A stretch of DNA of 64,000 nt from a virus (IMGVR_UViG_3300046171_000208:37694-101693); one strand, 5' to 3'; positions 12,344 to 13,104 are shown, counted from the stretch's first letter. Numbers and translations are program-made. The notes: generated by a model not told the origin, from the letters alone.

Positions 12344-12352
12344 TTTTCAAAT

Positions 12353-12382
12353 ATGGCGGGAAAAAATCCCGCCATTTTTTTT
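12353..12382 (+). terminator. rho-independent terminator
   Basis: ATGGCGGGA-loop-TCCCGCCAT followed by a T-run. Confidence 0.85.
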
Positions 12383-12468
12383 GTCCTGTAGGGTTTTCAC
12401 GAAACAAAACCAATTATTTAGATTAAAAACAGGTTAAAAATCAGTTAAATGTAAAGAATATATAAAAA

Positions 12469-12484
12469 TGTATCGTAAATTACA
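12469..12484. promoter_or_regulatory. NtcA-box-like site
   Basis: TGTA-TCGTAAAT-TACA matches the cyanobacterial NtcA consensus GTA-N8-TAC. Confidence 0.65.
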
Positions 12485-12491
12485 AAACTAC

Positions 12492-12520
12492 TTGCATATA
12501 TAGAGTGAATGTGTTACTAT
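12492..12520 (+). promoter_or_regulatory. sigma70-type promoter for the riboswitch operon
   Basis: TTGCAT-N17-TACTAT; predicted TSS about 12527, just before the aptamer start CGTTCA. Confidence 0.55.
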
Positions 12521-12528
12521 TAACACAA

Positions 12529-12762
12529 CGTTCATCTTATGGGCATCCTATTATCAGCTTTAACTCTTATTGCTAGTCACGAACCAGTCCATTGGACTAT
12601 TAAGTGTGATAGGTGGATGGAACTCGCTTATGAAATCAAACAAGATCCATATCTTGATGATGCAAGTAAGTTGGGTTTAATCAACCATTTCAAGTATAAA
12701 GTAGAAGAAGCTTGTAATGTCGGGGAGACATAAGACGCAAGTAAGCCGACTCGGAACGGGTT
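12529..12762 (+). ncRNA. glutamine-II (Downstream-peptide) riboswitch aptamer 1, interrupted by an ORF in the P2 loop
   Basis: CGTTCA(12529)-TCTTATG ... CATAAGA-CGC-AAGTAAGCCGACTC-GGAACG-GGTT; same core as aptamer 2; possible pseudoknot AGCC/GGTT. Confidence 0.65.
12539..12733 (+). CDS. 64-aa protein nested in the riboswitch P2 loop
   Basis: Open frame with hydrophobic N-terminus and two Cys; ATG and TAA lie within the complementary heptamers TCTTATG/CATAAGA. Confidence 0.65.
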   Translation: MGILLSALTLIASHEPVHWTIKCDRWMELAYEIKQDPYLDDASKLGLINHFKYKVEEACNVGET

Positions 12763-12825
12763 CGTTCATCTCCTACGGGAGACGCACAAGTTGACTGAAG
12801 GAACGGATATTAAAAACATCCAATT
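12763..12825 (+). ncRNA. glutamine-II (Downstream-peptide) riboswitch aptamer 2
   Basis: CGTTCA-TCTCC-TACG-GGAGA-CGC-ACAAGTTGACTGAA-GGAACG; possible pseudoknot AGTTG/CAATT; directly upstream of SD and a YRG peptide. Confidence 0.85.
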
Positions 12826-12842
12826 ACTTTAGGAGAAAACCA

Positions 12843-12950
12843 ATGGCAAAAGTCACTTATCGTGGTGTTGTTTACGACACCAACAGAAACAAAGCTCAGC
12901 AAACAAAAGAGGTCGAACTCACATATCGTGGCATTGCTCACGCTAAGTAA
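12843..12950 (+). CDS. DUF4278-like small protein (35 aa)
   Basis: MAKVTYRGVVYDTNRNKAQQTKEVELTYRGIAHAK, two TYRG motifs, SD AGGAG at 12831; not in the ORF track. Confidence 0.85.
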   Translation: MAKVTYRGVVYDTNRNKAQQTKEVELTYRGIAHAK

Positions 12951-13042
12951 TGTTAGTTACTGCAGAAATTTTAGCAGCATCTGCTATATTTCTAACTATC
13001 ATTTACGCTGAAGCTAGATTCTTGTATGGATACAAGTTCTAA
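12950..13042 (+). CDS. 30-aa hydrophobic peptide
   Basis: MLVTAEILAASAIFLTIIYAEARFLYGYKF; TAATG coupling to the DUF4278 ORF; followed by a terminator. Confidence 0.6.
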   Translation: MLVTAEILAASAIFLTIIYAEARFLYGYKF

Positions 13043-13049
13043 ATTATAA

Positions 13050-13076
13050 GGAGGGGTTGTTACCCTCCTTTTTTTG
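13050..13076 (+). terminator. rho-independent terminator
   Basis: GGAGGG-loop-CCCTCC + T-run. Confidence 0.8.
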
Positions 13077-13104
13077 TGCTATAATAGTTGAAACAATAAT
13101 AACT

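Follow-up and report, generated by a model that had tools for sequence, protein, structure and literature searches.

A conserved small-protein gene in the P2 loop of a putative glutamine-type riboswitch aptamer of cyanophages

Can a metabolite-sensing RNA domain enclose a complete protein gene? Aptamers are treated as compact non-coding domains, yet in the 64,000-nucleotide stretch of viral DNA analysed here (IMGVR_UViG_3300046171_000208:37694-101693; the window, numbered from its first letter) a whole conserved protein gene appears to lie inside one. The family that comes to mind is well described. The glutamine riboswitches RF01739 (glnA RNA, type 1) and RF01704 (Downstream-peptide, type 2) often occur in tandem, upstream of genes for DUF4278/IF17 proteins (PMC2864571, PMC6212724), and glutamine switches on DUF4278 leaders, as in Synechocystis gifB and Prochlorococcus MED4 (PMC6212724). 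The original motif paper describes tandem copies only (PMC2864571), and a 2017 survey, which recorded only two cyanophage glutamine aptamers, concluded that riboswitches are rarely used by phages (PMC5473149).

In the window, the order of elements from 5' to 3' is 5' half, ORF, 3' half, 5' half, 3' half (Table 1). The first 5' half consists of CGTTCA (12529-12534) and TCTTATG (12535-12541), which ends in the ATG of the nested ORF (12539-12541). Its partner consists of CATAAGA (12729-12735), CGC (12736-12738), 14 further nucleotides and GGAACG (12753-12758), which carries the 3' strand of P1. A previous, sequence-only reading had proposed both halves and the 64-codon ORF between them; these coordinates are exact to the base, and TCTTATG and CATAAGA are, as it stated, exact reverse complements. 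It had placed the second, intact aptamer at 12763-12806, of which the start stands and the end moves one base inward to 12805. The DUF4278 gene that it named downstream was recovered as a PF14105 match at 12843-12950 (30.6 bits; cut-off 25.3). The pattern GACGCA-N10-20-GGAACG is found twice in 64 kb, against 0.01 copies expected, and both copies are at this locus; the 5' motif CGTTCATC also has two copies in 64 kb, both here. The arrangement of halves exceeds chance.

Table 1. Features of the nested-gene locus, in window coordinates
Feature	Position	Strand	Remarks
Intrinsic terminator of upstream gene	12353..12385	+	9-bp stem and T run; terminator-like partial matches
NtcA-like box GTA-N8-TAC	12470..12483	+	Upstream of promoter; read from sequence
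Promoter-like TTGCAT-N17-TACTAT	12492..12520	+	Position kept in relatives
Split aptamer 1, 5' half	12529..12541	+	P1 CGUUC, unpaired A, P2 UCUUAUG including nested AUG
Nested 64-aa protein gene, PHROG 6471	12539..12733	+	ATG to TAA
Split aptamer 1, 3' half	12729..12758	+	P2 CAUAAGA including UAA stop, core CGCAAGUAAGCCGACUC, GGAACG
Linker GGUU	12759..12762	+	Between aptamers 1 and 2
Intact aptamer 2, P2 UCUCC-UACG-GGAGA	12763..12805	+	RF01739 match
Expression platform	12806..12842	+	Shine-Dalgarno AGGAGA at 12831-12836
DUF4278 (IF17-like) 35-aa peptide gene	12843..12950	+	PF14105; PHROG 5049
30-aa hydrophobic peptide ORF	12950..13042	+	Start overlaps DUF4278 stop (TAATG)
Intrinsic terminator closing operon	13048..13076	+	Terminator prediction

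Is the interrupted element a glutamine aptamer at all? Aptamer 2 scores 35.5 bits with RF01739 (gathering score 35) and 30.3 bits with RF01704 (gathering score 33), and an Rfam search of 12350-13100 at permissive thresholds returned no partial match to either half of aptamer 1. We built a custom covariance model whose 46 positions span P1, P2 and the core. Training drew on other phages, with 26 plain and 12 nested aptamers, and excluded the window and its near-identical relatives. This model finds exactly two matches in the 64-kb window: 12529-12758, with 53.9 bits (E 7e-13) along the full model (positions 1-46), the ORF being treated as an insert in the P2 loop, and 12763-12805, with 48.2 bits. 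It tolerates long loop insertions because nested examples are part of its training set; its E-values are roughly calibrated, and the 53.9-bit score derives from the two halves alone. The sequence-only reading had proposed that the halves, once rejoined, would score against a covariance model, and this full-length match supports it by proxy. As for the Rfam models, plain, insert-less twins of aptamer 1 reach 28.8-31.2 bits on RF01739 and RF01704, below both gathering scores, with E-values of 1e-4 to 1e-3 that are significant in a local search. The plain aptamer of contig L048 (637-683), which scores 31.2 (RF01739) and 30.7 bits (RF01704), is identical over its last 25 nt to window positions 12734-12758.

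The two helices agree with those of a glutamine aptamer. P1 of the split copy pairs 12529-12533 with 12754-12758 and leaves A12534 unpaired, as in aptamer 2, and P2 is a 7-bp helix, UCUUAUG/CAUAAGA, that closes a loop of 187 nt against the usual ~4. The core of aptamer 1 has CUCGGAACG in place of the GAAGGAACG of the RF01739 consensus and is nearer to CAUGGAACGG, the consensus of type 2; the only type 2 pseudoknot that can be drawn for it runs into the next aptamer. Aptamer 2 contains GAAGGAACG without a clear P3. The class label glutamine-II that the locus had been given is imprecise, since aptamer 2 scores above the gathering score for RF01739 (the glnA type) and below it for RF01704. We consider it probable that the split halves rebuild a glutamine-type aptamer around a protein gene, a judgement that takes in the whole explanation, including the presumed control by glutamine.

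Relatives of the locus show what stands at this place where the gene is missing. Prochlorococcus phage P-TIM68 has the same promoter followed by two ordinary aptamers and no nested gene, and at the same spot it reads CGTTCA-TCCTT-AACA-AAGGA-CGCAAGTAAGCCGACACGGAACG, then the second aptamer. Because a plain aptamer stands behind the same promoter in P-TIM68, the nested gene can be said to occupy the place of the tetraloop; TCCTT-AACA-AAGGA is just where the sequence-only reading put the replaced P2 loop. A protein search with the 64-aa product recovered 47 IMG/VR loci, and all 45 homologues with intact flanks lie between CGTTCA and CGC..GGAACG. The ORF-bearing aptamer may be the first of its array (window), the second (L017, L034), the middle of three (L038) or the only one (L011/L012). 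The last of these, at 691-926, has a clear P3 hairpin (GUGGUAUUACCAC), GAAGGAACG and an ORF of the same subfamily in P2, and since this ORF sits in a single aptamer, nesting is independent of the tandem form.

An independent census, for which IMG/VR was baited with the aptamer-1 core, gave 80 contigs, and at least one nested ORF is present in 64 of them. Arrays of a plain followed by an ORF-bearing aptamer are the most frequent (30 contigs), followed by two ORF-bearing aptamers (20), two plain ones (14) and an ORF-bearing followed by a plain one (10); the other 6 are single, truncated or three-element arrays. A census with the custom model was concordant, with 157 full-length matches. The nested layout is the majority state in the related contigs sampled and is not peculiar to the T4-like cyanophage of the window. 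Phage P-HM2, for example, carries two nested genes, PHM2_179 and PHM2_180. They precede PHM2_181, the gene that aligns with the DUF4278 gene of the window; no paper naming any of these three genes was found in the literature searched.

Across relatives we gathered 171 distinct nested elements, and their geometry is strikingly uniform. The AUG follows CGUUCA by 3-7 nt in all 171 (4 nt in the window), and stops fall within the P2 3' strand or the core, leaving no untranslated stretch in the loop. The 3' core is identical to the core of a plain aptamer in 146 of the 171, and it is unchanged even where it is also translated, as ...GRK* or ...DAKAD*. A search of cellular genome contigs with one peptide pattern, which does not argue that hosts are free of such elements, returned one contig, L174 (PAQA01000006.1), labelled as a Rhodospirillaceae MAG. 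This 16.6-kb contig has a phage-like nested array and then a Shine-Dalgarno sequence and an ATGG start like those of DUF4278 leaders, and is probably a mis-binned cyanophage contig. As a separate observation, a manA RNA (RF01745, 162 bits) lies ~200 nt downstream of the riboswitch operon in Marine virus AG-345-E15 (L004, 1171-1372); the Rfam scan of the window found no manA RNA.

If the two flanks of the ORF form a helix, they should vary together. Because MAFFT gaps the P2 5' strand of nested elements, the P2 register was anchored on CGTTCA and CGC, and duplex energy served as a second measure. Over the 171 elements the gap-free P2 averages 5.9 bp, against 3.84 ± 0.09 bp with shuffled partners, and none of 1000 shuffles reaches it. 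With bulges allowed, the flank duplex averages -10.9 kcal/mol, against -6.8 for all-partner and -7.8 for within-subfamily shuffles (0/200). The paired variants include TCTT/AAGA, TCCT/AGGA, TCCC/GGGA, TCCA/TGGA, TCTCC/GGAGA and TCCTC/GAGGA; the changes on the two sides of the ORFs are clearly compensatory. In a mixed alignment 99.2% of P2 cells are paired, four of the five P2 pairs vary on both sides, and covariation is 0.343 against 0.099 (0/500). The complementarity that had been claimed for the window recurs in homologues, where the two flanks pair and covary. The helix is not equally long throughout: the gap-free P2 is merely 3 bp in 27 of the 171. The nested AUG is fully paired in 92 elements, and at least two of its nucleotides are paired in 137. 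P1 is invariant in 38 of 38 alignment rows and gives no covariation because its strands never vary.

Predicted folds agree with a closed P2. The minimum-free-energy fold of 12529-12758 has P1 and P2 around a rod-like coding region (-61.4 kcal/mol, z -2.7), with P2 pair probabilities of ~0.99. A longer fold, 12524-12870, keeps P2 and replaces P1 of aptamer 1 with the hairpin GAACG-GGUU-CGUUC. P2 pairs have a mean probability of 0.75 over the 171 natural elements, against 0.30 with shuffled inserts (57-element subset), so that, in these predictions, natural inserts favour P2 closure.

The insert itself is a protein gene. In all 171 distinct nested elements the reading frame that begins with the P2 ATG stays open until a stop that lies in the P2 3' strand or the core. 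The subfamily of the window has a median dN/dS of 0.21 and codon-position entropy in the order 3>1>2; dN/dS is 0.60 in nested subfamily 2. These substitution patterns identify the nested ORF as a genuine protein gene under purifying selection. The nested proteins are 49-69 aa long, with a hydrophobic N-terminus and two cysteines ~33 residues apart; the eight subfamilies into which they divide join in a single group at E 1e-3. The window protein belongs to PHROG 6471 (E 6.7e-15) and has the conserved pattern of that family, H-x3-HW-x3-C ... C; H14, W19, C23 and C59 are invariant, and H18 is present in at least 90% of the sequences. AlphaFold2 models it as a helical hairpin (pLDDT 79). A PDB fold search with this model gave no match at E<=0.001, a Pfam search assigned the protein to no family, and a protein atlas search returned viral hypothetical clusters only. 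Near the C-terminus, 12719-12724 is a polymorphic hexamer (NVGET in one form, NSSET in contig L008).

The genomic setting is that of a compact transcription unit. The upstream terminator isolates the operon from read-through, and beyond it the operon would comprise promoter, aptamer 1, aptamer 2, DUF4278 gene, 30-aa hydrophobic peptide gene and terminator. The sequence-only reading requires the 5' half to lie within the transcript. Promoter position, taken as a proxy for the transcription start, is consistent with this: the start is predicted at ~12526-12528, 1-3 nt before CGUUCA and upstream of 12541. In relatives the promoter varies in sequence (TTGACT/TTGCAT and TAGTAT/TAATAT/TACTAT) and is conserved in position. 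A consensus promoter scanner scored TTGCAT-N17-TACTAT below threshold because the first hexamer matches at 3/6 positions, and conservation is for that reason the sole basis of the promoter call. Of 154 distinct upstream regions, ~65 have a GTA-N8-TAC box 58-61 nt upstream of CGTTCA; that of the window is perfect and lies 8 nt upstream of the -35 hexamer. Such an NtcA-type box suggests that transcription of the operon, too, may be under host nitrogen control. At the other end, of 120 distinct tails, 112 have 29-39 nt between aptamer and DUF4278 ATG and the other 8 have 61-62 nt, and the expression platform has the conserved motif ...ACUACUUU(A)GGAG... across these tails. The 30-aa ORF, very hydrophobic (MLVTAEILAASAIFLTIIYAEARFLYGYKF), ends just before the terminator; its product is likely a translationally coupled membrane peptide.

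The nested ORF is present in RNA libraries of four studies, two of which supplied exactly matching RNA-library contigs that begin at 12529 and at 12506. As contigs, these sequences are no proof of transcription and fix neither start site nor strand nor expression level. One run, X20, covers ~12496-12939 only, which is a weak hint at most. Contig ends at 12718 are explained by the polymorphic hexamer at 12719-12724, at which RNA and DNA contigs alike break.

How might such an element work? The nested AUG has no Shine-Dalgarno sequence, lies ~12 nt from the predicted 5' end of the RNA and is part of the closing helix. In the reading that we favour, as somewhat better than an even bet, a tandem glutamine riboswitch forms the leader of a small cyanomyovirus operon, and a gene splits its first aptamer. 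While the RNA is untranslated, the halves would pair across 187 nt through the 7 bp of P2 and the 5 bp of P1; glutamine would stabilise this closed form, bury the nested AUG and turn the nested gene off. A ribosome on the nested ORF would in turn hold aptamer 1 open. Because the AUG lies in the closing helix and the ORF runs into the 3' half, folded sensor and translating ribosome would be mutually exclusive. An objection to this scheme is that transcription reaches the 3' partner ~200 nt later than the 5' half, which would give ribosomes time to load while P2 is still unable to close. The intact aptamer 2 would control the DUF4278 gene, which glutamine would turn on, by analogy with host leaders, so that one ligand would push two products in opposite directions. 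What the analysis shows is the anatomy, the coding status, the conservation, the covariation and the predicted fold; glutamine binding, the direction of control and folding in vivo are the parts of this scheme that we infer.

The downstream sequence offers a candidate platform for the second output. UCUCCUA (12769-12775), from P2 of aptamer 2 (5' strand and loop), is exactly complementary to UAGGAGA (12830-12836, the Shine-Dalgarno region), and the P2 3' strand GGAGA mimics a Shine-Dalgarno sequence. This pair would fit an ON switch built from an anti-Shine-Dalgarno sequence and a Shine-Dalgarno mimic. The hairpin GAACG-GGUU-CGUUC (12753-12768) could couple the two sensors; inter-aptamer linkers are always 3-5 nt, among them GGTT (54), GAT (53) and GAAT (17). 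A fuller version, in which glutamine shuts the nested AUG and frees the Shine-Dalgarno sequence of the DUF4278 gene while nested translation resets the sensor, is tentative, with the chances somewhat against it. If true, the phage could read host nitrogen status through both ribosome traffic and ligand occupancy, and the P2 loop would be a docking site for swapped small Cys...Cys proteins.

Other explanations of the same arrangement deserve weighing. The P2 loop might be no more than a permissive site that tolerates a small gene, with the nested gene borrowing the promoter, any glutamine effect on it being incidental, and the aptamer still serving the DUF4278 gene on untranslated RNAs. That the ORF comes and goes among close relatives (window versus P-TIM68; an RNA-contig relative with a plain P2), that all four combinations of plain and ORF-bearing aptamers are seen in the census and that eight protein subfamilies share one site are what such cargo would produce. 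However, a neutral passenger would be expected to have its own Shine-Dalgarno sequence, a spacer and untranslated loop stretches, whereas the start is tied to CGUUCA, in or abutting P2, and the stop to P2 or the core in 171 of 171 elements; the preference of natural over shuffled inserts for P2 closure also speaks against indifference to the helix. We hold this account to be unlikely, though a serious competitor. A different objection concerns how the two aptamers pair. The outer P1 may join CGUUC of aptamer 1 to GAACG of aptamer 2, with GAACG of aptamer 1 and CGUUC of aptamer 2 forming an inner helix, and the whole may be one composite sensor in which P2 still closes around the gene. GAACG-GGUU-CGUUC is present in both the minimum-free-energy and the centroid folds, and the invariably short linkers suit it; moreover, core 1 resembles the 5' part of the RF01739 consensus and core 2 its 3' part (GAAGGAACG), and Rfam glutamine-II alignments of plain first aptamers reach into the CGUU of the next aptamer. 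A single, non-tandem nested aptamer (L011/L012) and ORF-bearing members of three-aptamer arrays (L038) are hard to accommodate in an interlocked fold. Covariation cannot separate it from side-by-side folds because all P1 strands are identical, and we think the interlocked arrangement a fairly long shot.

The repeated unit could also be read from the outside in, as 3' half, linker and 5' half, making it an intergenic repeat that shuffles small genes, with aptamer 1 no sensor at all. Conserved junctions of 25-40 nt do flank every ORF, and the same ORF subfamily turns up in first-type and second-type aptamers and at differing array positions. Against this, the two strands of P2 covary over every ORF, no 3' half accompanies the first 5' half at the point where the transcript is predicted to start, the cores are identical to plain-aptamer cores even where translated, and a nested aptamer can occur singly, all of which makes a mere cassette boundary improbable. 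Least credible is an intron-like removal of the insert that would restore an ordinary aptamer in the RNA. It would draw on one RNA-library contig that joins 12534 to 12736 with 12 other letters (GCCCAACAGGGC) between them. We rejected this joint as splicing, since GCCCAACAGGGC is the plain P2 hairpin of a related phage; the Rfam scans of the locus found no intron family, and the insert encodes a protein on which purifying selection acts. We regard the chance of such removal as negligible.

The layout offers a naturally occurring case of one RNA on which ligand sensing and translation would physically exclude each other, and it would tie abundant ocean viruses to host nitrogen status through a family of small proteins. 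No account of a riboswitch aptamer that encloses a gene turned up in the literature searched, which took in few subscription journals; absence there is no proof. The nearest relatives are the glutamine riboswitches themselves. The locus shares with them P1 CGUUC/GAACG, the unpaired A, P2, CGC after P2 and the GGAACG end, as well as the tandem arrangement, DUF4278 downstream and a nitrogen-linked promoter context. Unlike in them, P2 closes a loop that is a complete gene, with start and stop in the helix. The core of aptamer 1 also departs from RF01739 and RF01704 in lacking GAAGG, with no P3 hairpin or Downstream-peptide-type pseudoknot evident, and, unlike ordinary glutamine aptamers, the split copy is missed by the Rfam models. 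Model-based scans undercount phage riboswitches.

Leader ORFs under riboswitch control are known from bacteria. In the B12 and Mbox leaders of Mycobacterium tuberculosis the upstream ORF follows the aptamer as part of the expression platform, whereas here the gene is inside the aptamer. Common to both are a small leader ORF and translation tied to the sensor (PMC11260477, PMC12810186). Phages themselves provide two further parallels to this split aptamer. Group I introns of phages, such as T4 td with I-TevI, carry homing-endonuclease ORFs in peripheral loops. These, too, are structured RNAs of T4-type phages with a gene in a hairpin loop, where translation and folding exclude each other; the present RNA differs from them in being a probable ligand sensor and not a ribozyme, in encoding a Cys...Cys protein of 49-69 aa and not a homing endonuclease, and in having the start codon within the closing helix itself. 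The PeSL cassettes of T4-type phages are small genes bracketed by conserved promoter/stem-loop sequences and shuffled between genomes. Small phage genes within conserved brackets are found here as well, but here the brackets belong to a known metabolite aptamer, of which each supplies one half, and their covariation is that of a helix.
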